61,736 nt of DNA from Jacunavirus JC01 (taxonomy: Duplodnaviria > Heunggongvirae > Uroviricota > Caudoviricetes > Casjensviridae), in IMG/VR virus record IMGVR_UViG_2974716774_000001, positions 1 through 61,736 of that record, one strand, 5' to 3'. The translations under genes and the position numbers were made by a program. The notes beneath the pieces were generated by a model, which was not told where the DNA came from, ran no database searches, and was given only the letters and a program-made list of their open reading frames with translations. Of this stretch, positions 21,144 to 61,736 are shown one piece after another; position 1 is the first letter of the stretch; each line of letters starts with the position of its first letter.

Positions 21144-21382
21144 TCAACTACTACGATGGAATGCGGGAGCAGGTCAGTCTGCTCCTTTCCGAAGGCCACC
21201 CACACGCCCGGCGCTACCCACTGGCGACGCTGTGGCTGGAAGCACAAATCGTAATGCGCCGTCATAACCAAAGATTTGTCACCGAATCCCTGCTGATGCA
21301 GGGCTGTATCGGAACGATAATGAATGGGAAGAAAGGCTCTAAGCATTATCAGGACATGATAAGGAAACTTAGCGATGGCTAA
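20688..21382 (+). CDS. Tail assembly chaperone frameshift product (gpGT-like, predicted -1 frameshift near 21134-21140)
   Basis: The -1 frame is open from the slippery run GGGAAAAAA through 21382 and ends just inside the tape measure gene. Confidence 0.45.
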
Positions 21383-24300
21383 CAATTCATCCCGTGACGT
21401 CGAGCTTAATATCCGGGCGAGAGACTACAGCCAGAAAACGCTGAAGCAGGTAACAGATGCCATCAGCGACATGGCCAAAGCCCAGGATGCCCAGCGCCTT
21501 GCTGCCGAGCGCGGCGAAGTCACCGCCAAAGAGCTGGAGGCGAGCTACCGCAAGCTGGAGAGCGCCGGTCAGGCGCTGCTTAAGCTCAACTCACTGGTTG
21601 AAGTGTATAAGCGACAGACGGCCGCGCTGGAAGCCCAGCAGGTCAAGCTGGAGCAGACCGTCGAGAAGCAGAAGGAGCTGCAGGCCGCGTATGACGGCGC
21701 CGAGAAAGTAACGAAGCGTCAGGAGGCAGCACTGGCCCGCGCTAACCGCGCCGTGGAGAAAGCCACGCAAGGCCTGAGCGACCAGCAGGCTCGCGTATCC
21801 CGTGCGGCCGCGGAGCTGGACAAATACGGCATCTCCACCAACGAGCTGGCCCGGAGCCAGCAGACCATCGTGGCCAACGTCGGGCGCGTTAACGCGGTGC
21901 TGGAGCGCCAGGACAACATTATCCAGCGCGTGCCTGAGGCAGTGAGGAAATACAATCAGGCGTGGGATGAGGCGATCGCGACAAACAACCGTCTCGATAC
22001 GGCGCGCCTGGAAAAATATAACCGCGCGTGGGATGAGGCGATCGCCATCAACAACCGCATGGACGCCGCCGCCAAGCTGACGCAGCAGCGCCTCGAAGAG
22101 CAGGCTTACGCGATCGATAAGGTTATCACAGGCCTGCGGCGCCAGGCGGATGAGGCCATCGCAGCATCGCGCGGCTACCAGACTCTCGGCCGTGTGGTGG
22201 CAGCGACGAACCTGAGCACCGGCGGCCGTCTGGCCACTGACCTGCAGGCCATCGTTACGCCAGCGCAGGCGGCGCGTTCTACTCTGGGCGGGCTGGAGAA
22301 ACAGGTCGACTCGCTCTCCCGGGAAATTGAGGCGGGTGGGAAAAACATCGAGGGCGCAGCCCAGAAGCTGAAAGACCTGCAGGCCGCGCAGCAGGCGGCA
22401 ATCGGCATGGCCCGTCTTATTGACCAGTTCCGGGCACAGACGACTGCCGTGCGTACCGCGCGTGCGGAGTTTCAGGCAGCACGCGCCGACGTCATGCAGC
22501 TGGCCGAGCGTATGCGTGCCGCACAGGCTGACACCGAGGGTCTGGGTCGTGAGATGCAGGCGGCGCAGCAGCGCCTTAATGCCGCGACGCAGGCACTGCG
22601 CACTACCGGCGCGGCAGCGCGACAGACGCAGGCGGCGCTACGGTCAGCCGGTGTCGACACCCGAACGCTGGGCACTGAATCCGATCGCCTGCGCACTACC
22701 GCACAGCGTACGACGACGGCCGTCGATGGGCTGGCGGGCGCAGTTCGTCGCAGCGGGGAGGCAGCACGCGACGGCGCGAAGGCATTCTCCTTCTTCACGG
22801 ACAGCGGCCGTACCACGCTGTCGGCCACACAGCGCCTCAAAGGTGAGATTCTGGCGCTGACCACGACGTACATTGGCTTCCAGGGCGCTATCAACCTGGC
22901 GGGCGGCGCGGTGGATGCGTTCAAGACCCGGCAGCAGGCGCTCATCAAGATCTCGCAGGTCGTCGGCAAAGACCAGAACCGTCTCAACGCCGAGTGGGAG
23001 TACATGGAGGGTCTGGCCAACCGGCTCGGTGTCAAGATTGAGGACGTGGCCCAGGGATACACCTCATTCGCCGTGGCGGCCAAAGCGACAGGCCTCAGCC
23101 TGCAGCAGACGAAGTACGTGTTCGAGAGCATCACCAAAACCGGCCGCGTGTTCCACCTGTCGGCCGATGACATGCAGGGCGTGTTCCGCGCCATGCAGCA
23201 GATGCTGTCGAAGGGTCAGGTCTATGCGGAAGAGCTTACCGGCCAGCTGGGCGAACGTCTCCCGGCGGCGGTGGCGTTGTTCGCTAAAGGCATGGACATG
23301 ACCACGCAGGAGCTGCTGAAGGCGATGCAGAACGGCGAGATCAGCTCGCAGGCCGTCATCAACTTCGCACGCGCCAACGCCAAAGCTATCGACGCCGAAA
23401 TCGAGACCGCCAGCAAAGGCGTGGATGCGATGGAAGCGCGCGCCCAGAATGCCATGTTTAACTTCAAACTGGCGATGGCGGACTCCGGCTTCATCGAGGC
23501 GTACGTCAGGATGCTGGAGCGCCTGACCGAGTTCCTGAACAGCCCTGACGGTGCAGAGGCCGCGAAGAAATTCGGTGATGCTTTCTCCAAAGCCGCAGAC
23601 GCGATCATCTGGTGCGTTGACAACATCGACATTCTGATTAACGCGCTGACCGTTTTCGCAGGCCTGAAGGCGGTGCAGTATGTCGCGGGTCTCGTGCAGG
23701 GGCTGCGCAAGCTGGCGCCGCTGTTCGCGCAGATCGGCAAAATCGGCGATGGCATCCTGTCGTTCTTCAGCAAATTCGCAGCGCGCCTGGCGACAGGCAC
23801 CGGCGCAGTGAAAGGCCTGGGCATCGCGCTTGGCGGGCTGGTGCGCGCCATACCGTACGTGGGCTGGGCGCTGCTGGCCTATGACATCGGGGCCATCTTC
23901 TATGAGCAGTCGCAGACATTCGCCAAAGCGGTCGACGAGGTTATCCGCGACTTCAAGAACCTCGGCAATCAGCTTATCGCACTGGCGGAGACACCGGTGG
24001 CAGCGCTGCGGGATCTGGCGTATGCCATCGTGCGGCCTATCACCACGCTCTTCTCTACCAGCATCACGGCTATCGCGAACTGGATAGCGGATGTCGTCAG
24101 CCTGATCCCGGGCGTTGGTGAAGACCTGGCCAAGTGGACGCGAGACGTGGCGAAGGAGCTGACCAAGCAAAACCGTGACATGTTCCAGAACGTGTCCGGC
24201 ATCTGGGATGACGTCAATGACAAATGGGCCAAGATGAATGACGACATCACCAAAAAATACAGCCAGACGATGAGCGAGGTCGTTCGTCAGACGCTGGCCG

Positions 24301-25883
24301 CTAAAGCCAAAATGCTGCAGACGGATCTCAGCGCGGCGATGGGCTTCCAGTTCACCGAAGACCCGGGCGGCGGGATCAGCAAGCGTGACCGTGAGGTGCA
24401 GGCGCTGACCAAAGAGTTTGAAAAACTGCAGAAGTCCGCCGACAAAGCGAAGAAGTCGGCCAAAGAAGCACTGATGCGTAAAAACCTGCCGGGCCGCCTG
24501 GCGCTGGTCGACGAAGAGTTCGCACCGCAGCTCGCCAGGGCGAAAGCGCTCGGCGGCGATGAAGGGGCCAAGCTGACCAAACAGCTGCAGGGCATCATCG
24601 CTATCCGTAAGCAGGCCGAGACCGACGAGTACAACGCGTCACAGCGTAGTTCGTCCGGCATCGACAAGCGAGCACGCGCGTTGGAGAACCTGACGCAGAA
24701 ATACAAAGAGCTGAAAGACTCTATCCAGCTCAAAGAGGTGCAGCAGGATCCGACGTCTTCGCTGGCTGACCGCACCGCGGCTGCTGTGCAGAAAGCTAAC
24801 ACCGAGATGGATAAATATATCCGTCAGGCTAATAAGCTCGGTGGCGCGGAAGGCAAAGCACTCTCCGACCAGTTTACTGCCCTGAAGACGGTTAACGAGC
24901 AGTACATCACCCAGAAGATGCAGCTGGAGGAAGTGGAGCGCCTGGAGAACAAGGTCAACAATCTGCTGGCCATCCGTAAGTCGCGGATTGAGGAAATCAA
25001 CGCCAAACGTGAAGCGGGCGTTATCAACGAAGACCAGCAGGTCGCAGGCGTCAATCAGGTCAATCAGGAAACGCAGGGGCCGCTTAATGCCGCTCTGGGC
25101 CAGCTGCAAAGCGCGGGGTCACAGGCGCAAAGCATCATGGGGCCGGAGGCATGGGCGCAGCTCCAGGCGAACATCGCTGCGGCAAAAGCCAGTATGCTTG
25201 ACCTGACAGGTACTTTCACCACGATGGACTCTACCGTCGTTAAAGGTGTTCTCGGCGGCTTTGAAGCGGCGATGGACTCTATCTATGACAGCATGGTACA
25301 GCTCATCCGCGGCACGCAGTCTCTCAGTGACGCGTTTTCGAACCTGGGCGTGGCAGTGGCCAAGTTCTTCGCCGACTTCCTGCGTCAAATCGCAATGGCC
25401 ATCCTTCAGCAGATGGTGCTCAATGCGCTTGCGGGAATGGGAGGCGGTATCGGCGCGGCGGCGCAGGCAGCGGGCGGCGTGGCCAAAGGTGCGGCCAAGC
25501 ACAACGGTGGTATCATCGGCAGCTCGACGACCGGAGGTATGCAGACACGTCAGATGCAGACGTCGTGGTTTGCCAACGCTCCGCGCTTCCACACCGGCGG
25601 GCTGCCCGGCCTGAAGTCAGACGAGGTACCAGCCATTCTGCAGAAAGGCGAGCAGGTGCTGTCCAAAGATGACCCGAACAACATCCTGAACCAGCAGCGG
25701 TCTACGTCAGGCGGTGCTGCGTCGCCGCAGATGAATCGCTTCGTGCTGGTGGACGACCGCACCAAGATCCCCGAGGCCATGAACAGCCAGGAAGGGGAGC
25801 AGGTATTCGTGCAGTTCCTTCAGCGCAACGCCGCGACAGTCCGGCAGATTGCGTCACGTAAAACGAGCGGGAGAAACGGATAA
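21375..25883 (+). CDS. Tail tape measure protein
   Basis: 1502-aa ORF, N-terminal coiled-coil-like Ala/Gln/Arg-rich region, central hydrophobic Gly/Ala-rich region; located after the chaperone pair. Confidence 0.85.
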   Translation: MANNSSRDVELNIRARDYSQKTLKQVTDAISDMAKAQDAQRLAAERGEVTAKELEASYRKLESAGQALLKLNSLVEVYKRQTAALEAQQVKLEQTVEKQKELQAAYDGAEKVTKRQEAALARANRAVEKATQGLSDQQARVSRAAAELDKYGISTNELARSQQTIVANVGRVNAVLERQDNIIQRVPEAVRKYNQAWDEAIATNNRLDTARLEKYNRAWDEAIAINNRMDAAAKLTQQRLEEQAYAIDKVITGLRRQADEAIAASRGYQTLGRVVAATNLSTGGRLATDLQAIVTPAQAARSTLGGLEKQVDSLSREIEAGGKNIEGAAQKLKDLQAAQQAAIGMARLIDQFRAQTTAVRTARAEFQAARADVMQLAERMRAAQADTEGLGREMQAAQQRLNAATQALRTTGAAARQTQAALRSAGVDTRTLGTESDRLRTTAQRTTTAVDGLAGAVRRSGEAARDGAKAFSFFTDSGRTTLSATQRLKGEILALTTTYIGFQGAINLAGGAVDAFKTRQQALIKISQVVGKDQNRLNAEWEYMEGLANRLGVKIEDVAQGYTSFAVAAKATGLSLQQTKYVFESITKTGRVFHLSADDMQGVFRAMQQMLSKGQVYAEELTGQLGERLPAAVALFAKGMDMTTQELLKAMQNGEISSQAVINFARANAKAIDAEIETASKGVDAMEARAQNAMFNFKLAMADSGFIEAYVRMLERLTEFLNSPDGAEAAKKFGDAFSKAADAIIWCVDNIDILINALTVFAGLKAVQYVAGLVQGLRKLAPLFAQIGKIGDGILSFFSKFAARLATGTGAVKGLGIALGGLVRAIPYVGWALLAYDIGAIFYEQSQTFAKAVDEVIRDFKNLGNQLIALAETPVAALRDLAYAIVRPITTLFSTSITAIANWIADVVSLIPGVGEDLAKWTRDVAKELTKQNRDMFQNVSGIWDDVNDKWAKMNDDITKKYSQTMSEVVRQTLAAKAKMLQTDLSAAMGFQFTEDPGGGISKRDREVQALTKEFEKLQKSADKAKKSAKEALMRKNLPGRLALVDEEFAPQLARAKALGGDEGAKLTKQLQGIIAIRKQAETDEYNASQRSSSGIDKRARALENLTQKYKELKDSIQLKEVQQDPTSSLADRTAAAVQKANTEMDKYIRQANKLGGAEGKALSDQFTALKTVNEQYITQKMQLEEVERLENKVNNLLAIRKSRIEEINAKREAGVINEDQQVAGVNQVNQETQGPLNAALGQLQSAGSQAQSIMGPEAWAQLQANIAAAKASMLDLTGTFTTMDSTVVKGVLGGFEAAMDSIYDSMVQLIRGTQSLSDAFSNLGVAVAKFFADFLRQIAMAILQQMVLNALAGMGGGIGAAAQAAGGVAKGAAKHNGGIIGSSTTGGMQTRQMQTSWFANAPRFHTGGLPGLKSDEVPAILQKGEQVLSKDDPNNILNQQRSTSGGAASPQMNRFVLVDDRTKIPEAMNSQEGEQVFVQFLQRNAATVRQIASRKTSGRNG

Positions 25884-28650: not shown

Positions 28651-28868
28651 CAGATGAACCGCGTATCTACATGCGCCATGCGCGCGCTATGAACATCTGC
28701 GGCCCGGGCGTGGAGCGCATCGCCGAGCGCATGGGGGTCAACCTGATGGACTTCCTGGAGAACGGGTATCCGTGCGCACTGGCCGAGAAGTCCGCTAACC
28801 CGCTGCTGCGCAAGGCCGCGGCAATGGCACGCGAAGAGTGGGAGGCCGCACATGGGAAAGGCCAGTAA
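28647..28868 (+). CDS. Hypothetical protein
   Basis: 73-aa ORF overlapping neighbours by 4 and 17 nt in the tail tip operon. Confidence 0.35.
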   Translation: MTDEPRIYMRHARAMNICGPGVERIAERMGVNLMDFLENGYPCALAEKSANPLLRKAAAMAREEWEAAHGKGQ

Positions 28869-31800
28869 GGTTACAGTCGGCTACAAATATTATATGGGCC
28901 TGCACATGTCGATCTGCCGCGGGCCGGTCGACGAGCTGTGCGAGATTACCGTGGGCGATCGGCAGGCCTGGCAGGGCTCTGTCACCGGCAACACGCAATT
29001 CAGCATCAACAAAAAGAACCTTTTCGGCGGCACCAAAGCGGAAGGTGGCATCGACGGCACGCTGGACGTGATGATGGGCGGCGCTACCCAAACTATGTCG
29101 AGCAAGCTGCGCGCGATGCTGCAGGGCGATCAGCCGGAGTTTCGCGGCCTGATGACGACCTTCTTCGACGGCATGGTCTGCGCCATGTCGCCGTACCCGA
29201 AGGCCTGGAAGTTCCGCGTTCGTCGCATCCTGTCCGGCTGGGATGGCCCGGTGTGGTATCCGCAGAAGGCAACCATTAACCTGACCGGCTATTACGACGA
29301 TGGCTCCAGTCGCCAGATTAAGGCGATGAACCCGGTTCACATCATTTACGAAGCGCTGACTAACCGCGCGTGGGGGCTGGGCCGCGACCGCTCACTCTTC
29401 CTCGATGACGCGTGGCGTAAAGCTGCCGACGACATCTACGACGAAGGCTTCGGTCTGTGTATCCGCTGGGGGCGGCAGGACACGCTGATGTCATTCGTGC
29501 AGACGATTATCGACCACATCGGCTGCGCGGTATACGTGGACAAGTTCACCGGTAAATTCAAGATAAAGCTCATCCGCAACGACTATGACGCGGATTCTCT
29601 GCCCATAGTGGATATGGACTCCGGCCTGCTGTCTATCGACGAGGCGACCAACGCGTCGACGTATAACCTCATCAACGAAGTGATCGTCAACGCGCACAAC
29701 CCTGTCACCAACAAAGACTTTCAGGCCCGTCAGCACAACCTGGCGCTCATCCAGACGCAGGGCGCGCTGAACAGTGACACCCGCGACTACCCGGGCATCC
29801 CGACGCCGGAGCTGGCCATCCGCATCGCCCAGCGTGACCTGAAGGCGGCCTCGACCAACGTCCGGCGCTTCACCGTGACCGCCGACCGTCGGTTGTGGCG
29901 CCTGCAGCCCGGCGATGTCTTCAAGCTGCGTGACCCGCAAAGCCGCGGTATCGAGACTGTGGTCGTGCGCGTTGGCAAGGTGGAAGAGACTAACCAGACT
30001 GACGGCAGTATCAAAATCACTGCAGTGCAGGACGTCTTTGGCGTTGAGCTGAATACCTTCGCTGACGTTCAGCCGCCATCCCACGTCGAGCCGACTTTCG
30101 ACCCGCAGCTGGCCCGTCGTCTGGTTTACGAGTACACCTACGCCGAGCTGGCCCGCCTGCTGCCCACCGGTGAGTTCGAGGCTATCAAACCGGCGGAAGG
30201 CTTTGTCCACGCCCATGCGGAGAAGCCGACGGCCATGTCTGCCGGTGCTGACCTCGCGGTGCGCCCGGAGGGCCAGGCTAACTTCGTCGTTAACGGCACC
30301 ACCGACTTCACGCCACTGGCCGAGCTGCAGAACCAGATTGGCTACCTCGACACGCAGCTGCAGTATTACCGCGAGATTGACTTCGACGATGACGAAGAGG
30401 TGTATGTCGGCATGTCGCTGCTGATCGGCGATGGCCAGAAGAACGAAATAGTGCGTCTCGATGCGCTTGACCGCACCACGAAGACGATGACTATCGCGCG
30501 TGGCTGCTGGGATACTATCCCGCAGCGGCATTTCGGCGGCGCGCTTATCTGGGCTATCGAGGATAACGGCGGCACCGACGCGACGAAGTACCTGTCCGGC
30601 GAGACCGTCGACGTCAAGATCCTCCCGTTCACCCTGCGCGGCGGCAGCTACCCTATCGACGAAGCGCCGATTGACAGCGTGCTCATGCGCCATCGCTTCT
30701 TCCGGCCGTACGCGCCCGGGCTGGTGGAGGTCGAGACAATCGCCCGTGGCAGCAAAGCGCCGTGGTACGTCTCTTTCGACCTGCGGGCTGACGTCGGCTC
30801 AAACGAGGTGCCGGACTTCGCGCTCATCACCTGGGCTCACCGCGATCGCCCGGTGCAGCAGGATAAGCTGATTGACCACATGCAGACCAGCATCGGGCCG
30901 GAACCGGGCACGACGTATCGCCTGCGTGTCTTCAACGCCACTGGCGCGCTGGTACGCACCGAAACCGGCATCACCGGCACGCAGTTCGCCTATACCTACC
31001 AGATGGCCGCTGATGACACGCAGGTGGAGCTGGAAGCCACAGAGTCGACCTTCGGCACCATCTTCCTCGATGCGCAGCGTGACGGCGTGGATTCGTGGAT
31101 GTACTACACGCTGACGTTCACCGTTCACAAGAAGCCGCCGCAAAACGGCGAGGTGGCGCTGCTCTCGATGCAGACGACCGCCGATGACACCGACATGACC
31201 TCCAACCCGGATAACGACCTCTCCGGCGCGCAGGTGTCGAGTATGCAGATGAACGCGACGCAGGATGACTCGGATATCGCGACAGGCGACGACAACACCG
31301 GCGGCCAGGTGGCGCTGATGAGCGAGAACGCCACGCAGACCACGAAGATCCTGCCGACCATCGACTTCTACCTGTACGAAGCGCCCTACCTGACGCTGGC
31401 GCGGGAAGGCCGCGATTTGACGCATTCCCAGATGCTCGGCTTCGTTGCGCGACCGTCTGACCGTGCTACCGATGGCTACGACTTCTGTGACCGCCTGCAG
31501 GGCGAAGAGGCCTGGCACAATAACGGCGCCGCGCCGTGGACTCCGTGGGGCGTGCTGAAGGGCTTCATGGCGCAGCTGACCAACGAGTTTGAAGTCGACC
31601 TGACCAGCGATACTGATGGCGTGCCGATCGGCTCCGTCCAGCAGGGCGACGTGCTGCTCATCGACAACGAGCTGATGGTCGTGCAGTCTGTCGACGGAAA
31701 ACGCTTCACCGTTGGCCGCGGTGCCGTGGATACCGTACCGGCCATCCACTACGCGAAAGTCGTGGTATGGCTGTTTGACCGCGCGCACGCTGCTGCCGAC

Positions 31801-32670
31801 AGGCTTTACGGCGACAACGACGTGGCCAACGCCGTCATCAGGCCACACAGCTTCGCCGAGGCTATCCGCCCTGAGGATATGCCGTTTAAGCAGCTGCAGA
31901 TGCAGTACCGGCCAATCCGGCCATACCCGCCGGGCATGTTGCTGTTTAACGGCCAGCACTGGTTCAAGCGCATCAACGCACTGGCAGACGAGAACTACGA
32001 GAAGCCGCAGGGCAAGCCGGTCATCGTGACCTGGGCGCACCGTAACCGCATCTGGCAGGACGACGAAGCGTACGACCACTACGCCACGGGCATCCCGCCG
32101 GAGCCGGGTGTGGAGTACCGTATCTGGATTGGGTACCGGTACATCGAGAATCGCCAGGAAGTGAAGGTCACTCTCGATACGCTGGTGACGTCGGATGCCG
32201 GTATCACGTTCACCAAAGAGATGGTAGAGCGCTGGGGCGAGAAAGCTGGCCGCTTCCTACAGTCTCCCGGCTTTGTCGGCGTAGAGGTGGCAGTCAACGC
32301 AGTGCGGGATGGCGTGTTTAACTGGCAGGGCTACGGCGCGCAGATGCTGCTGCCGTCTTACCCGCTGAGCCCGGGCGAGAAGCCTGGCGGCGGCACGGTT
32401 CCGCCAGACCCGGAATACCCGCAGCCCGGCGACCCGACGCCTAACCCGAACGACCCGGATCCAAACCCGAACCCGGGCGACGGCAATGGCGACACCGACC
32501 CGCTGCCAGACCCGGGCAACCCAGACCCGAATCCGGATCCGGAAGTGCCGGACACTGACCCACCGGCGCCAGAACCGGAGCCGGAGCCAGACCCGGAGAA
32601 CGTATTCGGCTGGTCGAACAACTGGGATCACGGCTGGGCATCGAAACTGCCTGACCAGAACGGAGAATAA
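28852..32670 (+). CDS. Tail tip central fibre / host specificity protein (lambda gpJ-like)
   Basis: 1272-aa ORF; internal region ELAIRIAQRDL...RRLWRLQPGDVF resembles the gpJ pattern; C-terminal Pro/Asp/Asn-rich low-complexity linker. Confidence 0.65.
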   Translation: MGKASKVTVGYKYYMGLHMSICRGPVDELCEITVGDRQAWQGSVTGNTQFSINKKNLFGGTKAEGGIDGTLDVMMGGATQTMSSKLRAMLQGDQPEFRGLMTTFFDGMVCAMSPYPKAWKFRVRRILSGWDGPVWYPQKATINLTGYYDDGSSRQIKAMNPVHIIYEALTNRAWGLGRDRSLFLDDAWRKAADDIYDEGFGLCIRWGRQDTLMSFVQTIIDHIGCAVYVDKFTGKFKIKLIRNDYDADSLPIVDMDSGLLSIDEATNASTYNLINEVIVNAHNPVTNKDFQARQHNLALIQTQGALNSDTRDYPGIPTPELAIRIAQRDLKAASTNVRRFTVTADRRLWRLQPGDVFKLRDPQSRGIETVVVRVGKVEETNQTDGSIKITAVQDVFGVELNTFADVQPPSHVEPTFDPQLARRLVYEYTYAELARLLPTGEFEAIKPAEGFVHAHAEKPTAMSAGADLAVRPEGQANFVVNGTTDFTPLAELQNQIGYLDTQLQYYREIDFDDDEEVYVGMSLLIGDGQKNEIVRLDALDRTTKTMTIARGCWDTIPQRHFGGALIWAIEDNGGTDATKYLSGETVDVKILPFTLRGGSYPIDEAPIDSVLMRHRFFRPYAPGLVEVETIARGSKAPWYVSFDLRADVGSNEVPDFALITWAHRDRPVQQDKLIDHMQTSIGPEPGTTYRLRVFNATGALVRTETGITGTQFAYTYQMAADDTQVELEATESTFGTIFLDAQRDGVDSWMYYTLTFTVHKKPPQNGEVALLSMQTTADDTDMTSNPDNDLSGAQVSSMQMNATQDDSDIATGDDNTGGQVALMSENATQTTKILPTIDFYLYEAPYLTLAREGRDLTHSQMLGFVARPSDRATDGYDFCDRLQGEEAWHNNGAAPWTPWGVLKGFMAQLTNEFEVDLTSDTDGVPIGSVQQGDVLLIDNELMVVQSVDGKRFTVGRGAVDTVPAIHYAKVVVWLFDRAHAAADRLYGDNDVANAVIRPHSFAEAIRPEDMPFKQLQMQYRPIRPYPPGMLLFNGQHWFKRINALADENYEKPQGKPVIVTWAHRNRIWQDDEAYDHYATGIPPEPGVEYRIWIGYRYIENRQEVKVTLDTLVTSDAGITFTKEMVERWGEKAGRFLQSPGFVGVEVAVNAVRDGVFNWQGYGAQMLLPSYPLSPGEKPGGGTVPPDPEYPQPGDPTPNPNDPDPNPNPGDGNGDTDPLPDPGNPDPNPDPEVPDTDPPAPEPEPEPDPENVFGWSNNWDHGWASKLPDQNGE

Positions 32671-32672
32671 TC

Positions 32673-33410
32673 ATGCCATTAAAAAATGCCCCGAGTCAGG
32701 GGCTTAACTACGGATGGGTGCGCGGCGAGGACTACTGGGGCGGCCCGGTCAACGACGACCTTATCTTCCTCGATACGCTGCTGCACCCTGTCGTCAGGTC
32801 AATGTCTTTCAGCTCGCCACCAGCCGATGCCGTGCCGGGCGACCGCTTCATCGTGGCGGCCAACCCGACAGGCCCGTGGGTGAACCACGCGGGGGATCTG
32901 GCGGCGCTGGTGGAAGGCACATGGGTTTTCTATAAACCGAAGACCGGCTGGCGTCTGCGCCTGCTCTCCACGAATCAGTTCGTCTGGTACAACGGGGATA
33001 ACTGGCAGGATGAGGTGACAGGGGATGACCCGGTTAACCCCGGGCCGGATCCAACGGTCAAGCCGACAGCGTACGACATCGCGGTGACAGTGAGCGACGC
33101 CATGTACCCGGACGAGGCGCTGGTGCATATGCCTCTGCTCGATGCGATGATGCTCCCGGCCAACATGGCAGACAGCTCGCTCGACATGCTACAGTCGTCT
33201 CAGGTTTACGCGCAGATGCGAGTGCAGAGGAACGGCACCAACGTGGGCACCATTACCGTTGAGGCAGGCTCGTACAATGCCACCTTCGCCACGGCCGGTG
33301 GAAACGCCGTTCCCTTCGCCAAAGGGGATCGCCTGACTATCCGTGGCCCGGCAGTCGCGGTGGACGCATTCAAGAATTTTGGATTCGTCATCCGCCTGAA
33401 ATTCGTGTGA
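32673..33410 (+). CDS. Hypothetical tail-associated protein
   Basis: 245-aa ORF with RBS GGAG directly after the gpJ-like gene. Confidence 0.45.
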   Translation: MPLKNAPSQGLNYGWVRGEDYWGGPVNDDLIFLDTLLHPVVRSMSFSSPPADAVPGDRFIVAANPTGPWVNHAGDLAALVEGTWVFYKPKTGWRLRLLSTNQFVWYNGDNWQDEVTGDDPVNPGPDPTVKPTAYDIAVTVSDAMYPDEALVHMPLLDAMMLPANMADSSLDMLQSSQVYAQMRVQRNGTNVGTITVEAGSYNATFATAGGNAVPFAKGDRLTIRGPAVAVDAFKNFGFVIRLKFV

Positions 33411-33417
33411 GGAAAGC

Positions 33418-34371
33418 ATGGCCACCTTTATCGACGGCTTTGAACAGTTTGACGGCGACCGCACTGCGGCGCTGATGCGCATGGCAGGCTACTCCGTCGG
33501 CGGTGTCACCCTGGCGGCGGGCAGGAAGGGCAACAGCCGCTCGGTCAGCTGCTACCGCGCCACGCTCTCCCGGGCATGGTCGATGGTCGACAATCTCCTG
33601 ACGCTGGGCTTCGCGGTCAAATTCGACCAGCGTGGCCCGCTGCTGTCCGTGGGATCCGGCGCGAACCAGCTGTACCTGTGGGTAGACCCGGAGACCGGGC
33701 TGGTTAACCTCGGCACTGGCCTGGCGGCCGGTACGCCGGGATACATCAACCCGCTGAAAAACCGCTGGTACTACTTCGAGCTGCAGCTGGACAAGTCCAC
33801 CAGCAAAGCGACGCTGTTCGTGAATGGCAAACAGGACATCTCGATACCGCTGCCATCCTTCATCACCGGCAACCTGACCGTGCTGCTCAACCCGTTTCAG
33901 CTCTTCGTGGCGCCGAAGGAGGACTACGGCACGCGGCTCTACGACGACCTGTACCTCAACGACGGCCCGCGGCTCGGCCCGATTCAGGTCACGTCGCGTT
34001 TCGCCACGGCGGATGGCAGCAAGACCGGCTGGAGTTTTGACGGTGCTGCTACGCGCTGGCAGGCGGTGTCGCCGCCGATTAACGAGCTGGACAAGTTTAT
34101 CTACACGGCGATCGACGGGAACGAGAACAGCTTCATCTCCGGCACCTCGCTGCCGGACAATAACCCTATCCGGTACCTGCAGCTGGTAACGCTCTTCAGG
34201 AAGGCCACGTCTGACCCGATGAGCCTCGACTTTAACATCGGCAGCCAGGTGAAACGTGAGTCAAACATCAGCCGCGACTGGACGTTCCGATATACGATGA
34301 TGAGCGCGTCGGGGTATGATGCCGACAGCATTAAGGCCGCCGAGTTCGGCGTCAAACTGATTCTGGGGTAA
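33418..34371 (+). CDS. Paralog 1 of a five-member tandem family (putative lectin-like tail fibre/decoration protein)
   Basis: 317 aa; N-terminal M-x-x-F-I-D-G-F-E; internal RWYYFELQL...LFVNGK; RBS GAGGAAAG. Confidence 0.55.
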   Translation: MATFIDGFEQFDGDRTAALMRMAGYSVGGVTLAAGRKGNSRSVSCYRATLSRAWSMVDNLLTLGFAVKFDQRGPLLSVGSGANQLYLWVDPETGLVNLGTGLAAGTPGYINPLKNRWYYFELQLDKSTSKATLFVNGKQDISIPLPSFITGNLTVLLNPFQLFVAPKEDYGTRLYDDLYLNDGPRLGPIQVTSRFATADGSKTGWSFDGAATRWQAVSPPINELDKFIYTAIDGNENSFISGTSLPDNNPIRYLQLVTLFRKATSDPMSLDFNIGSQVKRESNISRDWTFRYTMMSASGYDADSIKAAEFGVKLILG

Positions 34372-34375
34372 ACAC

Positions 34376-35353
34376 ATGCTGATTTTTATGGATGGCTTCG
34401 AGCAGCTGAGAGACACGGTGGCCTCCGGCTCGCCTTCCCCGCTGCTGACAGTTCTCAACGCCTCCGGCTACACCGCCTCAGGCAATATCACCGTTGACCC
34501 AGCGCGCGTTCAGACGTCGCGCTGCCTGACGCTGGTGGACACGGCGACGCTGAAGCGCACCTTCACCTCGACGCAGGGCAAGGTCGTTATCGGCTTTGCG
34601 TACAAAGGCGGCACCCGCACGGATATCACGAATATCACGAACGTCGGCGCGCTGCAGTGGGATGCGACCACGGGCAAGCTGAAGATGGCCAATGGCACCG
34701 GCACGGCCACGGTGCTGCTGGACACGTGGTATTACTACGAGATTGTGATCGACAAGGCGAACCAGCTACTGCAGGTCTTCGTGAATAACGGAAAAGACAT
34801 CGAGGTCGGGCTACCGGCCAGCGCGCAGAACCTGTCGACATTTGAGTGCCTGTGGGCTGGCGCCGCGGCCGATAACAAAGGCGTTGATGACCTGTACTTC
34901 GTCGACAGCGCCACCGGCCGCTACGTTGACCGCATGGGGCCGATAGCCATTACCGCCCGCCTGCCCACGCAGGACGTCGACAAAGAATGGTCGCCTTCCA
35001 GCGGCACCGACCACTGGGATCTCGTCAATAACATGCCGCCGGTCGACGACCAGTATGTCCAGTCAAACACCTCCGGCGCGACTGACACGTACCTCTCGAA
35101 CGTCGGTCTGCCTCAGGGCGCCGCGATCCTGGCCGTCGGCATCACGGCGCTGAATAAGAAGTCCGATATCGACGCCCGGCAGCTGGGGCTGGTCATCGGG
35201 CGCAAGGGCCAGACGCAGAAGGAAAAGGTGGACACTCAGCTCTCCACCAGCCCAAAATACAGTTACGCCGTCTTCGAGACCGCGCCGGACAACACGGCGT
35301 GGACGGATGAAAGCGTGACCTCAGTACCGTTCGGCGTCGTCGTGCGCCCATAA
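34376..35353 (+). CDS. Paralog 2 of the tandem family
   Basis: 325 aa; N-terminal MLIFMDGFEQ; TWYYYEIVID...VFVNNGK; YVQSNTSGATD motif. Confidence 0.55.
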   Translation: MLIFMDGFEQLRDTVASGSPSPLLTVLNASGYTASGNITVDPARVQTSRCLTLVDTATLKRTFTSTQGKVVIGFAYKGGTRTDITNITNVGALQWDATTGKLKMANGTGTATVLLDTWYYYEIVIDKANQLLQVFVNNGKDIEVGLPASAQNLSTFECLWAGAAADNKGVDDLYFVDSATGRYVDRMGPIAITARLPTQDVDKEWSPSSGTDHWDLVNNMPPVDDQYVQSNTSGATDTYLSNVGLPQGAAILAVGITALNKKSDIDARQLGLVIGRKGQTQKEKVDTQLSTSPKYSYAVFETAPDNTAWTDESVTSVPFGVVVRP

Positions 35354-35366
35354 CAGGAGAAACACA

Positions 35367-36392
35367 ATGTCTCTTAAATTTCAGGACGGCTTCGACCACT
35401 ACGCCGCAACCGGAGTTAAGGGCGCGACGCTTCAGCCGTATCTCACCGATAACGGCTACGATGTGCGTAACGCCTCCGACACCACGTTCGCCGTGGTTGA
35501 TGGTCGACGTGCTGGCGCGCGGGCGCTGCAGTTCACCGTGGCGCGAAACTCAACGACGAACGCGTCGCTGTCGTGGGGCTTCACCTATCAGGGCGACTAC
35601 GCCTGCTTCGGCTTTGCGATGAAGGCCAGCGGCTCCCGTATGCGCATCTGCCGCATCGAGAACGTCATCGACGTCGACTGGGATGCCACTACCGGCAAAA
35701 TCAGCGTGGCGGGCCAGCTGGGCGTTAACCCGCTCATCCTGAACGACTGGTACTACTTCGAGATTGAATGCGACTTCACCGCGAATAACGTTAAGATCTG
35801 GGCGAACAACGAACTGCAGCTGACCGTGGATATCTCGTCCGTCGCGAAGCCCGCGAAAGCGACTATCGTGTGGGGCCAGGTAGGCACCGCGCCGGATGCT
35901 GGCGTGCAGATCCTGGATGACTTCTACGCGCTCGATGCCGGTGGCACCTCCAATACCGCACGCCTGTCGCCGATTGAAGTCGTGACCCGTGCGCCGTCAG
36001 CCGACATCACGACCCAGTGGGAGATCGTGAACGCTACGGCAGGCACGCCGCACTACCAGATCGCCGGGCAGCTGGAGCCGAACAAAGCGGGCGCGCCGTA
36101 CCTGCAGTCGAACACCGCTGGCGCCACTGACCTGTTCCGCTCCAACACCGCGCTGCCGACAGACAACACGGTCTTTGCGGTCTCCGTCATCGCGTACGCT
36201 CGCAAGGGCGACGTGGACGACCGCAAACTCGGTCTGCTGATCCAGCCTGAGGGCGGCTCTGAGTCCGAGACGCAGGTGCCGCTGACGGAGGCCTTCAAGT
36301 ATTACCAGCAGACCTTCGATAAAACGCCGAGCGGCGGCGCGTGGAATAAGAACATTGTAGAGTCGCTGCAGTTCGGCATCCGCACGCGCTAA
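35367..36392 (+). CDS. Paralog 3 of the tandem family
   Basis: 341 aa; N-terminal MSLKFQDGFDHYA; DWYYFEIECD...IWANN; YLQSNTAGATD motif; RBS AGGAGAAA. Confidence 0.55.
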   Translation: MSLKFQDGFDHYAATGVKGATLQPYLTDNGYDVRNASDTTFAVVDGRRAGARALQFTVARNSTTNASLSWGFTYQGDYACFGFAMKASGSRMRICRIENVIDVDWDATTGKISVAGQLGVNPLILNDWYYFEIECDFTANNVKIWANNELQLTVDISSVAKPAKATIVWGQVGTAPDAGVQILDDFYALDAGGTSNTARLSPIEVVTRAPSADITTQWEIVNATAGTPHYQIAGQLEPNKAGAPYLQSNTAGATDLFRSNTALPTDNTVFAVSVIAYARKGDVDDRKLGLLIQPEGGSESETQVPLTEAFKYYQQTFDKTPSGGAWNKNIVESLQFGIRTR

Positions 36393-36401
36393 GGAGCCAG
36401 C

Positions 36402-37559
36402 ATGGCCATTCTTTTCGTTGAAGGCTTTACCGGCGTGCCGCGCGTCGCAAACGGCGGGTGGGCAAACACCCATCCGCTGTACGCGCTGGGCTGGACGCTG
36501 AACGCCAAATACAACGGCTCCAGCGCCGTATCTGCGTCCGATGGCAACGTGGTGGCCAGCGTAGAGGCAGACCCGACGTTCGCCACGCGCAGTCAGGTGT
36601 CGCTGCAGAAAACGTCGGCGAATGGTTCGCTGTCGCTGGTGCAGCAGATGACGCAGGCTTTCGACACCTCCGGGTATCAGAAGTACGTCATCGGCGGGAT
36701 GTTCCTGGTGAGCCAGACGGACACCTCAGCGGCAGGCGGCTACGTGGTTATTTCGGGCGCTGTGCAGTTCCCAAGCTCCCAGGGCAGCTTCCCTACGGCT
36801 GACATCCTTGCGCAGTTCTACGTGCCGAATAACGGGGCTGACGGCACCGCGTCTGCGACCATTGTCAGTCAGTCGCTCGTCACGCCGCTGCTGAAGAAGG
36901 ACAAGTGGACGCACTTCGAGGTTTTCGTCGAACAGGACACCGACCGCATTCGCGCCTACCTCGATGGCACGCTGGTGCTGGACTACACCTACACCGGCAC
37001 CTTCGGCTCGGCAACCGGCGGACTCAGCCTGACGGCGTTGCGCTCCACGGCACAGACGGGCGTCTTCACCACGAAATTCTCTAACGTCTACATGCTGGGC
37101 TGCGACGACGTTCATACTGGCCCTCTCGGCCCGGGTGCCCGCGTGCTGGAAGTGGCGCCAGCGGCTGACTTCGCCGTGACGTGGGGCCGTCCTGCCAGCT
37201 TTGCGAGCAACGCCGCGGTGCTGCAGCAGGCCTTCAACGCCGCCGCGCCGTCGTTTCTGACCACGGCCGATACCACGCCAGACCTGTACAAAGGCCCGGA
37301 CGCAGTGGCGGCTAACGCGGCTACGGTGTACGGCGTGGCCATGAAAGTGAACGCGATGACAATGGCCGAGGGCAACCACGCGATCGCGGCCGCCGCGCAG
37401 TACGGCACCAGCAGCTCCGTGGGGCCGCGCAGCTACAACCTGCAGCTGGGTACGCTCAAGCCGCTGGTGCTGGACATCTCGAAGAACCCGGCAACGGCCG
37501 AGCGCTGGACACCTTCGGAAATCACCGCGGCCGGTATCGGCATCAAGATGCTTAACTAA
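36402..37559 (+). CDS. Paralog 4 of the tandem family (more divergent)
   Basis: 385 aa; N-terminal MAILFVEGFTG; KWTHFEVFVEQD...YLDG; RBS context TAAGGAGCCAGCATGG shared with paralog 5. Confidence 0.5.
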   Translation: MAILFVEGFTGVPRVANGGWANTHPLYALGWTLNAKYNGSSAVSASDGNVVASVEADPTFATRSQVSLQKTSANGSLSLVQQMTQAFDTSGYQKYVIGGMFLVSQTDTSAAGGYVVISGAVQFPSSQGSFPTADILAQFYVPNNGADGTASATIVSQSLVTPLLKKDKWTHFEVFVEQDTDRIRAYLDGTLVLDYTYTGTFGSATGGLSLTALRSTAQTGVFTTKFSNVYMLGCDDVHTGPLGPGARVLEVAPAADFAVTWGRPASFASNAAVLQQAFNAAAPSFLTTADTTPDLYKGPDAVAANAATVYGVAMKVNAMTMAEGNHAIAAAAQYGTSSSVGPRSYNLQLGTLKPLVLDISKNPATAERWTPSEITAAGIGIKMLN

Positions 37560-37568
37560 GGAGCCAGC

Positions 37569-38645
37569 ATGGGCGTCACCCTGATGGAAAACTTTGACTG
37601 TGACGTGGGCGCGCTGGTGGAGCGGGGCTGGGTTATGCCCGCCACCACGACGAACGTCTTCACAGCCATTGAGCAGTTCACTGAGAACGGCATCACCCGA
37701 AACTGCTTCCGCCACAGCATGTCGATGAGCTATTACGGCTTCGGCGCGTTCTACCCGTTCCGCATCCCGCTGCCCGCATCGAAAGAGTTTTTCGTGTCAT
37801 TCCGGATGCGCTACCCGAACGCCTCCCGTATCAACTCGTCAACCGCATGGAGCGTCTCTACTAACAGTGGGCGTTCAGCCGCGAACCTGGTGCTGGAGGT
37901 CTACCCGGCCGATGCTTATTCCAGCGTCTACCTGAAGAACAACGGACAGGTGGCGGGGTCTCCCAGCTACCGGTTCAACCATCAGACGTGGGCGACCATT
38001 GAGATGCAGCGCAAAGCGGACGGCTCGACGAAGGTGTGGGTGGACGACATGCTGCTCTACAGCGCAAACGCAAACACCACGGCCTCGGCGGACAACTACC
38101 TGTACATGGGCGTGGTCAATGCCGGGCAGGGCAGCACGATTGATGGATATCAGATAGCCGACGTCGTTGTCATTGACCCGACCACGGCAGGCCTGCAGAA
38201 TCGACCGGGATCCAGTGAGCGCGTATTGTCGCTGGCCGCAAGTGCCGATGTGCTGGCACAATGGACGGCGATCGGCGGCGCCACCGAGCCGCACAACCAG
38301 CTGATGAAAAACTATCCGGCCACGGTGGATACGACGAAAGTGCTGCAGGGCGACACCGCAGGGCAGCGCGAGCAATACAGCCTCGCGGATTTCCCGGCAG
38401 GCTTTGGCACGCAGCTGCTGACGCTCGGCTTTGAGCAGCGCGCGAACAACCCTGGCAGCTCGCCGCACGTCTTCACTACCGAAGTGGATCTGGGTGCCGG
38501 GCCTGTCGGTGTCGCAGATAACACCGTGGCACCCGGCGCAACGTACAGCTATCGCCCGGTGTACGTGGCCTCAAAGCCCGGCGGCGGTACATGGACAGCG
38601 GCGGACATCCCGGCGCTGAAGATAGGCTTCTCCGTTAAGTCATAA
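37569..38645 (+). CDS. Paralog 5 of the tandem family (more divergent)
   Basis: 358 aa; N-terminal MGVTLMENFD; QTWATIEMQRK...VWVDD; same RBS context as paralog 4. Confidence 0.5.
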   Translation: MGVTLMENFDCDVGALVERGWVMPATTTNVFTAIEQFTENGITRNCFRHSMSMSYYGFGAFYPFRIPLPASKEFFVSFRMRYPNASRINSSTAWSVSTNSGRSAANLVLEVYPADAYSSVYLKNNGQVAGSPSYRFNHQTWATIEMQRKADGSTKVWVDDMLLYSANANTTASADNYLYMGVVNAGQGSTIDGYQIADVVVIDPTTAGLQNRPGSSERVLSLAASADVLAQWTAIGGATEPHNQLMKNYPATVDTTKVLQGDTAGQREQYSLADFPAGFGTQLLTLGFEQRANNPGSSPHVFTTEVDLGAGPVGVADNTVAPGATYSYRPVYVASKPGGGTWTAADIPALKIGFSVKS

Positions 38646-38654
38646 GGCGCATAT

Positions 38655-40763
38655 ATGGCCGAAGCTATTAAGATGGCGGGCTACCGACTGGTAAGCCTGT
38701 CCTATAACGGCAAAACGCCGGACAAGCTGGGCGCGGCCACCGCAGGTACGCTATCCATCATCTACGTTGAGGCCGCGATAAACCGCGTCGCCTCTTTTCG
38801 TCTTACCGCCCTGAGCGCAGCTACCCGATCCCCTGACAGAATTGGTGCCGTGTCTGCGGCCACCACGGCCATGATTTACGTCGAAGCGCCGGTCAACCGC
38901 ATGGCCACGTATCGCCTGGTCGGCCTGAGTGCCACGACTCGCCAGCCGGACAAGCTGGCAGTGGCCACTGCAGGTCTCGTGGCGTTCCTGATCCGCCCGC
39001 CTTTCGGCAGCGCGCAGGCCGGGCGCTTCGGCTTCATCATCGAGCAGAAAGAGGTCGGGCCTCCGGCGTACGTGAAAGAGGCACAGCTGCTCGTTACCGC
39101 CGCGCGGCAGGTGCCGCCGGTAAGCCAGGTCATCTCGTACGAGAGCGTGCGCCAGACAGTGATGCTGACGTCCATGCTCTACGGCGCGATGCCGTTCCCG
39201 CTCTCCTACACTCGCGCGAAGCAGCTGCACCAGCTCGTGCTGCAGGCGAAGCCGATCAGCACTATCTCGTACGAGTCCGTGAAGCAGGTGCGCAACCTGG
39301 CGGCGACGCAGTTCAACTACATCATTCCGGGAGACGTCTGGTCGAAGAGCAGCGCCGCCCAGACCGTGATGCTGGTCTGTCAGTCGCTCACCATTCCGTA
39401 TACGCCGACGTCCGGCGAGTACCTCAGGCAGAACCTGATGCTGGTGGCGCTGCAAAGCGCGCCAATGCCCATCCGTATTTCCCGCGTTACCGTGCGGCAG
39501 GAGAGCGTGCTGGTGGCGCTGAAGCGTCCGCAGGAGAGACTGCCACGGTCGATTACCCGCGTGCCGCTGGTGACGACGCTGGCTTCGCAGAGACGCATCG
39601 ATCCGATGCCGCGCTCCGCCGAATTTGTGGGCGCCGTGCTTTCGCAGGCGTCAGTGCCCACGGTAATGCCGGAGCCGCACGGCCCTGACCACGTAGCGCA
39701 GCTGTATTCGCTGGCGCTGGTTCCGACCGTTATGCCCGCAGTCCAGGGCGTGCAGCAGGTTAAACAGGAGCGCGTGCTGGTGTCGCAGGCCCGCCCGGCG
39801 CCGCTACCGATTTCCCGCGAGGCTGTACCTCAGGTTACGCTGCTTGCCTCGCAGGGCACGTCATACCCGGCACCGGGATCCATGTCGAGCCTGCAGGTGA
39901 AACAGGAGCGCACGCTGGCGCTGGTGCAGTCGTCCTATCCGCCGCCGACCCGCATCTCCTATACCGCCGTGCCTCAGGTGGCCATTGCGTTCATGACCCA
40001 CCCTCCAGCGTCTTACTACCCCGACCCGGAAGTGGTGTACGAGCGCTCGCGCTATGACTTCGTGTCGCAGTTCGTCGAGCTGGTGACGATGGGTCGACCG
40101 TTGGCGCTGCCGCTGTCCTATGTGCCGGTGCCGCAGCTGGCCATGCTCACCGCGCAGCACGCGGACTACCTGTCGCCGGAAGAGATGGCTCGCTCCGGTG
40201 CCTTCACCTGGCAGGTCATCGAGAACGTCGCGACCACAGCGGACTACCCTTCCGCCGACGCACCGGCCAGCCGCGTTATCGTGCCGCAGCTCATCGAGCA
40301 CGTTGCGGTGACGGCCGACTACCCTGATGCCCATCTGCCGGTCAATTACGCGATTGTGACGCAGGTCGTGGAGCATACGGCCACGGTTGAGACTTATCCC
40401 GATCCGGGCACCCTTCAGTCAGTGCAGAATGTGTGGCAGGTATCCGAGCAGCTGGCGGTCGAAACTGATTACCCGGACGCTGGTGCGCTACACTCACCTG
40501 TGATAGCTTTGCAGCTTGTTGAGCAGGTCACTTCGTCGGCTAACTACCCGGACAAAGATTTCCCGCAGTCTTTCGTCCGGCTGGCTCAGGCGACACAGCA
40601 GGTGGCCTTCAAAGCAGCTTACCCTAACAAGGACGTTCCACAGTCCTCGGCTCGGGTAAATCAGGTGCTCCAGCATGTTGCCCGGCGCGACCTGACGATG
40701 TATCAGCTACCGGTACCGCCGCGGCGCCACAGAGTGCGGGTCGTGTGCCGATTCGTGTACTGA
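38655..40763 (+). CDS. Repeat-rich protein (putative tail fibre shaft)
   Basis: 702-aa ORF with three types of internal tandem peptide repeats (N-terminal about 38-aa units, central ISYESV-type units, C-terminal about 27-aa units ending in DYPD/TYPD/NYPD). Confidence 0.55.
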   Translation: MAEAIKMAGYRLVSLSYNGKTPDKLGAATAGTLSIIYVEAAINRVASFRLTALSAATRSPDRIGAVSAATTAMIYVEAPVNRMATYRLVGLSATTRQPDKLAVATAGLVAFLIRPPFGSAQAGRFGFIIEQKEVGPPAYVKEAQLLVTAARQVPPVSQVISYESVRQTVMLTSMLYGAMPFPLSYTRAKQLHQLVLQAKPISTISYESVKQVRNLAATQFNYIIPGDVWSKSSAAQTVMLVCQSLTIPYTPTSGEYLRQNLMLVALQSAPMPIRISRVTVRQESVLVALKRPQERLPRSITRVPLVTTLASQRRIDPMPRSAEFVGAVLSQASVPTVMPEPHGPDHVAQLYSLALVPTVMPAVQGVQQVKQERVLVSQARPAPLPISREAVPQVTLLASQGTSYPAPGSMSSLQVKQERTLALVQSSYPPPTRISYTAVPQVAIAFMTHPPASYYPDPEVVYERSRYDFVSQFVELVTMGRPLALPLSYVPVPQLAMLTAQHADYLSPEEMARSGAFTWQVIENVATTADYPSADAPASRVIVPQLIEHVAVTADYPDAHLPVNYAIVTQVVEHTATVETYPDPGTLQSVQNVWQVSEQLAVETDYPDAGALHSPVIALQLVEQVTSSANYPDKDFPQSFVRLAQATQQVAFKAAYPNKDVPQSSARVNQVLQHVARRDLTMYQLPVPPRRHRVRVVCRFVY

Positions 40764-61724: not shown

Positions 61725-61736
61725 GGTGCGCAGAGC
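61725..61736. repeat. Terminal 12-bp direct repeat GGTGCGCAGAGC, right copy (putative cohesive end)
   Basis: Exact copy of bases 1-12 at the last 12 positions of the window. Confidence 0.6.

Follow-up and report, generated by a model that had tools for sequence, protein, structure and literature searches.

The question raised by this locus is what five consecutive, related genes, here called p1 to p5, do at the distal end of the tail module of Cronobacter phage JC01. The window analysed, a stretch of DNA of 61,736 bp, is the complete genome of this phage. Both of its ends (1-12 and 61725-61736) consist of GGTGCGCAGAGC, the Chi-type cohesive end, and the genome paper on JC01 places it among the Chi-like siphophages and reports the same cos ends and 50 hypothetical genes (PMC9759504). 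The first-pass annotation had proposed that the genes form an array of lectin-like paralogs next to the tail tip, acting as a multi-specific receptor-binding or fibre-decoration apparatus. The answer that we prefer, and to which we give about an even chance of being correct, is that p1–p5 are minor distal-tail accessory proteins which bind host surface glycans, p1–p3 being a constant part of the set and p4 and p5 a variable, host-specific part. For JC01 itself we infer all four elements of this answer, namely the presence of the proteins in virions, their attachment site, the binding of glycans and a role in host range.

The array occupies positions 33418-38645. Its genes are as follows.

33418-34371, + strand: p1, 317 aa, ortholog of Chi gp32 and YSD1_31 (open reading frame; phrog_2448, E 7e-69).
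34376-35353, + strand: p2, 325 aa, ortholog of Chi gp33 and YSD1_32 (open reading frame; phrog_2448, E 1e-103).
35367-36392, + strand: p3, 341 aa, the most conserved member, ortholog of Chi gp34 and YSD1_33 (open reading frame; phrog_2448, E 1e-112).
36402-37559, + strand: p4, 385 aa, divergent and fast-evolving, distant ortholog of Chi gp35 (phrog_10924, E 2e-10; phrog_2448, E 9e-6).
37569-38645, + strand: p5, 358 aa, the most divergent and fastest-evolving member (open reading frame; phrog_2448, E 2e-9).

The open reading frames confirmed exactly the five tandem genes, their lengths and the spacing of 4-13 nt that had been reported, the gaps being 4 nt between p1 and p2, 13 nt between p2 and p3, and 9 nt each between p3 and p4 and between p4 and p5. 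BLASTP joined p1, p2 and p3 to one another (E 4e-26 for p1–p2, 2e-15 for p1–p3 and 9e-47 for p2–p3) and gave only marginal pairwise matches for p4 and p5 (E 0.001-0.09). Ortholog alignments were built for the p1–p3, p4 and p5 groups and their profiles were compared using hhalign. The p1–p3 family matched the p4 family over the full length (probability 97.9%, E 3.6e-13) and also matched the p5 family (97.4%, E 1.6e-11), and the p4 and p5 families matched each other (96.5%, E 8e-10). By these comparisons all five proteins are homologous. The five-fold paralogy and the greater divergence of p4 and p5, both asserted earlier from shared motifs, are thus borne out, by BLASTP for p1–p3 and at the profile level (E 8e-10 to 3.6e-13) for p4 and p5. 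All five match phrog_2448 and belong to that family, p4 having a better match to phrog_10924, and p5 is 100% identical to a JC01 protein deposited as hypothetical. Nothing passed threshold when the five proteins were searched against Pfam, NCBIfam and PADLOC.

Most of the motifs on which the paralogy had originally been based were found again. A W-x-x-x-E block is present in all five proteins (WYYFE in p1 and p3, WYYYE in p2, WTHFE in p4 and WATIE in p5), GPIxVTxR is limited to p1–p3, and YxQSNTxGATD occurs in p2 and p3. The conserved N-terminus, however, did not extend to the whole array. It is shared by p1 (MATFIDGFEQF), p2 (MLIFMDGFEQL), p3 (MSLKFQDGFDHY) and p4 (MAILFVEGFTGV), but p5 (MGVTLMENFDCD) is a partial match only.

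Relative to the closest relative of JC01, represented by metagenomic contigs L047 and L048, the ratio of nonsynonymous to synonymous substitution rates (dN/dS) is 0.09-0.22 for p1–p5 (0.11 for p1), indicating purifying selection, and dS is ∼0.7-0.8 for all genes from the J-like tail gene through p4. Therefore, p1–p5 are functional coding genes. The same design, a stop codon plus a Shine-Dalgarno sequence, is found at all junctions of the array, and an internal scan of the region for promoter- and terminator-like sites showed no excess over shuffled sequences. A single, translationally coupled transcript would fit these findings. The translation-initiation context noted earlier as common to p4 and p5 is real, being a shared 16-mer, TAAGGAGCCAGCATGG, at 36390-36405 and 37557-37572 and nowhere else in the genome, but it is uninformative. 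It was rejected as a sign of recent duplication or as a regulatory element because it comprises the stop codon and Shine-Dalgarno sequence and differs in the closest relatives. A megablast search with 33418-38645 against a phage collection which does not include JC01 gave zero matches, so that collection holds no phage that is close at the nucleotide level.

The folds of the proteins were examined using predicted structures. p3 was modelled by AlphaFold2 with a 141-sequence alignment, and p5 and the p4 ortholog of Serratia phage JS26 were covered by public BFVD models. The p3 model (mean pLDDT 97.5, pTM 0.93) is all-beta with two domains. Foldseek aligned the BFVD model of JC01 p5 with the p3 model over the full length (TM 0.70/0.67, E 1e-14). 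A Foldseek search of BFVD with the p3 model showed that the p4 and p5 orthologs of JS26 (TM 0.66 and 0.60) and AchV4_0026 of Achromobacter phage AchV4 (TM 0.81) share the complete two-domain architecture, and gave further matches in Sphingomonas, Vibrio, Roseovarius and Achromobacter phages. The model and these matches together argue that each paralog folds compactly into two beta sandwiches of lectin type. The N-terminal domain is predicted to be a jelly roll of the ConA/LamG-like, two-sheet beta fold, and the C-terminal domain a beta sandwich resembling carbohydrate-binding modules (CBMs), with the galactose-binding-domain fold common to CBM6/32/35. In the p3 model the conserved N-terminus does not form an anchor peptide of its own but provides the opening strand of the jelly roll. 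The W-x-x-x-E, VNG-like and DD-x-Y blocks appear to be the structural signature typical of LamG domains.

The ConA/LamG-like jelly roll suggested by the first-pass annotation therefore stands as a predicted fold, though not as a Pfam assignment, and the second, CBM-like domain had been overlooked. The gathering score of Laminin_G_2/3 was not reached by any paralog. p4 scored 18.6 bits against the 27.6 needed for Laminin_G_3, p5 gave E 0.18 and p1–p3 gave no match; 14 of 141 relatives matched Laminin_G_2/3 at E ≤ 0.05. Sequence and profile searches of the PDB gave weak ConA-like matches only (NTNHA, E 2.5e-4) or none.

The array is not confined to JC01. A tblastn search with p3 found 165 phage records, nearly all of them Chi-like and mostly with three matching places apiece. 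In Klebsiella Chivirus Phraden, in Chi and in YSD1 the gene order is J-like (CHI_30 = YSD1_29), DUF2793 (CHI_31), gp32–gp36 and the lysis genes, with gp32–gp35 as the four members in Chi. Reciprocal BLAST against Phraden paired p1 with gp32 (35% identity), p2 with gp33 (53%), p3 with gp34 (67%) and p4 with gp35 (24%, C-terminal part only), and paired the 702-aa repeat protein encoded after p5 with gp36. p5 has no counterpart in Chivirus and is found in pEp_SNUABM_08, JS26 and some metagenomic relatives. The order J-like, DUF2793, p1, p2, p3, p4/p5 if present, repeat protein and lysis genes is fixed in 36 IMG/VR loci as well as in Chi, YSD1, Phraden, pEp_SNUABM_08, JS26 and AchV4. Most loci have four copies, these being the p1–p3 trio and one p4-type protein of 376-927 aa. 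Five copies are found in a JC01-like, Gwanakrovirus-like (Erwinia phage pEp_SNUABM_08) and Dunedinvirus-like (JS26) group, and three in AchV4 and one metagenomic lineage. Judged from gene content and order, the array is a conserved module of Chi-like phages and not a peculiarity of JC01. The earlier view that it is not a described system is correct in that no function has been assigned, but the module itself, in three to five copies and in fixed order, has already been deposited as hypothetical proteins. In the records of Phraden gp34, Proteus phage Jing313 and Salmonella phage 35, family members bear implausible product names (‘putative short transient receptor protein’, ‘histone-lysine N-methyltransferase’).

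The family extends well beyond the Chi-like phages. With a profile of the p1–p3 orthologs, representatives of 9,413 clusters formed at 50% identity were matched at E ≤ 1e-3, and 4,075 remained at the stricter E ≤ 1e-10, and the corresponding protein family, PHROG 2448/10924, has neither a Pfam model nor an assigned function. In Caulobacter phages of the phiCbK type (Karma) and in Burkholderia jumbo myophage BcepSauron a member is encoded directly after the J or tail-fibre gene, as are two neighbouring members in Brevundimonas phage Fanboy. Streptomyces phage Galactica has a ‘minor tail protein’ of 1,103 aa which also contains the C-terminal domain. The annotation near the family member of Lu11 was uninformative. 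Location in the tail module, co-oriented with the tail-tip genes, was found for p1–p5 and also in unrelated phages. In JC01 the array is downstream of the tail-tip gene and on the same strand, as had been stated, but it is not immediately adjacent since a 245-aa DUF2793 gene (32673-33410) intervenes.

In one more distant metagenomic lineage of ∼65-kb genomes (loci L032-L042) the orthologs of p2 and p4 contain insertions of 260-650 aa composed of Asp-box (S-x-D-x-G-x-T-W) beta-propeller repeats, for example the following.

L032, 7954-9840: ortholog of p2 or p4 with an Asp-box insertion.
L032, 10873-13014: ortholog of p2 or p4 with an Asp-box insertion.
L040, 11077-13860: ortholog of p2 or p4 with an Asp-box insertion.

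The inserts match Pfam DUF6242 above threshold and Sortilin-Vps10, PSII_BNR and BNR weakly, and their carriers retain the first and last strands of the scaffold. This suggests that the family may be a scaffold which displays extra binding domains. The ∼625-aa relatives had been considered as p2–p3 fusions of the ‘Rosetta stone’ type, which would have pointed to a physical chain; hmmsearch showed instead one family profile split by an insertion of 260-320 aa. In the same lineage the J-like gene is split in three.

Evolutionary rates were compared in 19 complete loci taken pairwise, with the pairs binned by the identity of their J-like proteins. When the J-like proteins are 70-90% identical, identity is 68% for p1, 80% for p2 and 82% for p3, and only 38% for p4, 42% for p5 and 56% for the repeat protein. 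When they are at least 90% identical, p4 is at 78% and p5 at 69% with all others at least 93%. Against the closest relative of JC01 the identities are 87% for J-like, 82% for DUF2793, 86% for p1, 91% for both p2 and p3, 82% for p4, 65% for p5 (38-53% in residues 81-200), 73% for the repeat protein and 90% for the endolysin. The rate of evolution is two to three times higher in p4, p5 and the 702-aa repeat protein. Among the orthologs of p4 and among those of p5, mean identity is 38-39% in the N-terminal ConA-like domain and 53-54% in the C-terminal domain. In these comparisons p1–p3 are strict 1:1 orthologs whose conservation equals or exceeds that of the J-like hub protein. The unequal rates therefore divide the array in two, a slow non-redundant trio, p1–p3, and the fast p4 and p5. 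The latter follow, together with the repeat protein, the usual pattern of specificity determinants; evolution faster than that of the core tail, the signature of such determinants, was found for p4 and p5 only and not for p1–p3. The ‘multi-specific’ character originally ascribed to all five is thus as expected for p4 and p5 from their fast divergence but is a poor fit to p1–p3.

A closely related pair gives a finer view. Between Chi and YSD1 the gp31–gp34 proteins are identical, and gp32–gp34 show zero nucleotide differences. Residue differences number three in gp35, all in the N-terminal domain, six in the J-like protein and 27 in gp36. At the nucleotide level Chi (L050, 13125-20271) and YSD1 (L051) differ at nine positions in the DUF2793 gene, five in gp35, 83 in gp36 and 39 in the J-like gene. 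The host ranges of the two phages have been reported to be different (PMC10399903) and their virions described as nearly identical (PMC12264135). Their J-like proteins were also called ‘identical’ (PMC12264135), which is not exact given the six amino acid changes.

The evidence on virions comes from published proteomics of homologs in relatives and not from JC01. In AchV4, a member of the Casjensviridae, the genes for AchV4_0025, AchV4_0026 and AchV4_0027 follow the J-like and DUF2793 genes and their products match the family profile (hmmsearch E 1e-100, 5e-52 and 8e-31, respectively), p2 being 36% identical to AchV4_0025. AchV4_0025 and AchV4_0026 were identified as virion structural proteins by liquid chromatography–tandem mass spectrometry (LC-MS/MS), while the repeat-protein homolog AchV4_0028 was not reported as structural (PMC7996906). 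LC-MS/MS of pEp_SNUABM_08 virions gave 12 proteins, among them the J-like gp29 and the DUF2793 protein gp30 (5 peptides) (PMC8310351). The virion proteomics of the relatives is contradictory, with two homologs found in AchV4 and none in pEp_SNUABM_08. Virion association of the paralogs is plausible.

From these results a mechanism can be proposed in which p1–p5 would be late, translationally coupled genes of the JC01 distal-tail module, whose products would be stand-alone globular virion proteins of low copy number at the tail tip or fibre, beside the J-like hub and the DUF2793 fibre. Once the phage has travelled down the flagellum, the paralogs would bind a host surface polysaccharide, which may be lipopolysaccharide, O-antigen, capsule or enterobacterial common antigen. 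The constant, non-redundant set would consist of p1–p3, and p4 and p5 would vary with the host, mainly in the ConA-like domain.

Several points weigh against glycan binding by tail accessory proteins. A lectin-type fold by itself is no proof of sugar binding, and the p3 model shows neither a fibrous shaft nor a coiled coil nor any anchor domain that could be recognised. The published cryo-electron microscopy (cryo-EM) structure of the Chi tail tip reportedly comprises four proteins, none of which is one of gp32–gp35. The p4-like AchV4_0027 was not reported as structural (PMC7996906). The pEp_SNUABM_08 list of 12 proteins lacks gp31–gp36 despite the same five-gene array in that phage (PMC8310351), and the proteome paper on phiCbK names three tail proteins and not the endolysin-adjacent family member (PMC3556154). 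Furthermore, glycosylation has never been demonstrated for Salmonella flagellin, which serves Chi as its primary receptor (PMC10399903).

The alternatives depend in part on the neighbouring genes. The late structural operon runs in the order tape measure, distal tail proteins, J-like, DUF2793, p1–p5, 702-aa repeat protein and lysis genes, and includes the following.

21375-25883: tape measure protein, in the late structural operon.
28852-32670, + strand: J-like tail-tip hub or central fibre protein, 1272 aa (Pfam Phage-tail_3, phrog_6284).
32673-33410, + strand: DUF2793 ‘tail fiber’ protein, 245 aa, homolog of CHI_31 (Pfam DUF2793, E 8e-25; phrog_7049).
38655-40763, + strand: 702-aa repeat protein, counterpart of Chi gp36 (phrog_7226).

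The J-like protein is the homolog of Chi gp30 (BH2P) = YSD1_29 and matches PDB entry 8vjh_A, the Chi ‘minor tail protein’, with E 0; ∼500 of its residues lie beyond the part which aligns to a 735-aa J protein. The 3′ end of its gene (∼32350-32620, + strand) encodes a low-complexity stretch rich in Pro, Asp and Asn (PDPNPNP..., PEPEPEP), with short tandem repeats in the DNA, immediately before a short Trp-rich C-terminal tail. The literature disagrees as to which gene encodes ‘the tail fibre’, this being CHI_31, the DUF2793 protein, in one paper (PMC10399903) and YSD1_29 = CHI_30, the J-like protein, in another (PMC12264135); the numbering was checked in the records. The 702-aa repeat protein shows a period of exactly 25 residues over its C-terminal third (YP at 531, 556, 581, 606, 631 and 656) and repeats of ∼37 residues at its N-terminus, and gave no match in Pfam or the PDB. 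Its gene is invariably the last of the module, between the paralog array and the lysis genes.

It is possible, though we think it unlikely, that the paralogs, perhaps with the 702-aa protein, are the ordered blocks or the decoration of a single long curly fibre that wraps the flagellum, and that they bind flagellin protein and not glycans. The strict 1:1 orthology and fixed order of p1–p3, with conservation at least equal to that of the hub, argue for non-interchangeable positions in an assembly. The Chi fibre is reported to be 220 nm long (PMC4342425) and 12-20 residues per nm are quoted for phage fibres (PMC3556154), so that the ∼500 extra residues of the J-like protein fall far short of this length. 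The fibre is also flexible, and its C-terminal part was not resolved by cryo-EM (PMC12264135). Against this reading, immunogold labelling is reported to have assigned the long fibre of Chi and YSD1 to the J-like YSD1_29 (PMC12264135). The paralogs are predicted to be compact, globular, two-domain and non-fibrous, each of ∼8 nm by our estimate. The family also occurs as a single copy in phages not known for such a fibre, and the proteomics of pEp_SNUABM_08 is negative.

Another reading, which we hold to be rather improbable, is that p1–p5, as an ordered set and maybe together with the DUF2793 and 702-aa repeat proteins, form a hitherto unseen heteromeric organelle at the end of the Chi-type tail. 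This organelle would make up most of the 220-nm fibre that wraps the flagellum, or else it would be the missing device for recognition of the cell surface (the secondary receptor), and p4, p5 and the repeat protein would set the host range of Chi-like phages.

We attach a similarly low probability to the paralogs being non-virion morphogenetic factors, that is chaperones or scaffolds which fold or attach the J-like or DUF2793 fibre in the manner of lambda Tfa or T4 gp38. The genes are directly 3′ of tail-fibre genes in several phage types, their products are missing from the pEp_SNUABM_08 virion list even though the low-abundance gp30 was found, and AchV4_0027 was undetected. The presence of AchV4_0025 and AchV4_0026 in virions speaks against this role, and no tail-fibre-assembly model of Pfam or NCBIfam and no PHROG chaperone family was matched. 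To our knowledge, four to five large two-domain proteins of lectin fold are unlike the known fibre chaperones. The hypervariable p4 and p5 would also suit contact with a ligand better than the chaperoning of conserved partners.

Still less probable is that the paralogs degrade glycans, acting as depolymerases of the polysaccharide lyase or hydrolase type, and are not passive binders. Two family members weakly match Pfam Polysacc_lyase, and the Asp-box propeller inserts of the relatives recall the architecture of sialidases. Against this, the conserved W-x-x-x-E block, V-N-G-like turn and DD-x-Y appear to be the LamG-type (Laminin_G_3) structural signature and no known catalytic motif, curated enzyme families all remained below threshold, and matches to lectins score equal to those to enzymes. 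That the paralogs merely ride in the late operon and act inside the infected cell or on its envelope, in superinfection exclusion, receptor masking or anti-defence, is very improbable, as their location between tail and lysis genes and inconsistent detection in virions must be set against the lack of any evident signal peptide or membrane segment (the N-terminus being a conserved beta strand of the fold), the lack of a PADLOC match, the presence of two homologs in virions and the tight synteny with tail-fibre genes across phage types.

The proposed role as distal-tail glycan-binding proteins can be compared with known systems. Chi gp32–gp35 and YSD1_31-34, together with AchV4_0025-0027, are true orthologs or paralogs which share with p1–p5 their place behind the J-like and DUF2793 genes and their length class. 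They differ in copy number, which is four in Chivirus, three in AchV4 and five in JC01 as in pEp_SNUABM_08 and JS26. Chi gp32–gp35, AchV4_0025-0027 and JC01 p1–p5 are all without an assigned function, the Chi orthologs being annotated as hypothetical. Identity with members of the ConA-like lectin/glucanase superfamily (CIP1, 3zyp; the lectin domain of V. cholerae sialidase, 2w68; legume lectins) is only 7-16%, and none of the five JC01 paralogs reaches the Pfam gathering score. The C-terminal domain is predicted to be akin to CBMs of the galactose-binding-domain-like fold (CBM32, CBM6, CBM35, CBM36 and CBM22).

A lectin-fold protein in a phage tail module is not surprising. Siphophage tail tips can carry accessory carbohydrate-binding proteins such as BppA of the lactococcal phages Tuc2009 and TP901-1 and the CBM-bearing ‘evolved’ Dit. 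The proposed logic is alike in that lectin-type modules of the distal tail would add saccharide binding to a central host-recognition device, but no relationship of sequence or of whole-protein structure between BppA or ‘evolved’ Dit and the JC01 paralogs was found. Furthermore, BppA and ‘evolved’ Dit are known baseplate components with defined anchors, whereas the JC01 type of array consists of four to five separate, ordered two-domain paralogs with no shaft or recognisable anchor and a location that is predicted. Lambda Tfa and T4 gp38 resemble the paralogs in gene position, directly 3′ of the tail-fibre genes, but they have no homology to them and differ in size, fold and copy number.

Chi-like phages are a model for flagellum-dependent infection and are considered for phage therapy. 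p1–p5 and the repeat protein would be concrete candidates for the post-flagellum recognition of the cell surface and for the host-range determinant of these phages, p4, p5 and the adjacent repeat protein being the fastest-evolving parts of the tail module. The analysis also supplies a structural annotation for a very large orphan family. As this family numbers more than 9,000 clusters at 50% identity and is not represented in Pfam, any function established here would carry over to the annotation of many phage genomes.

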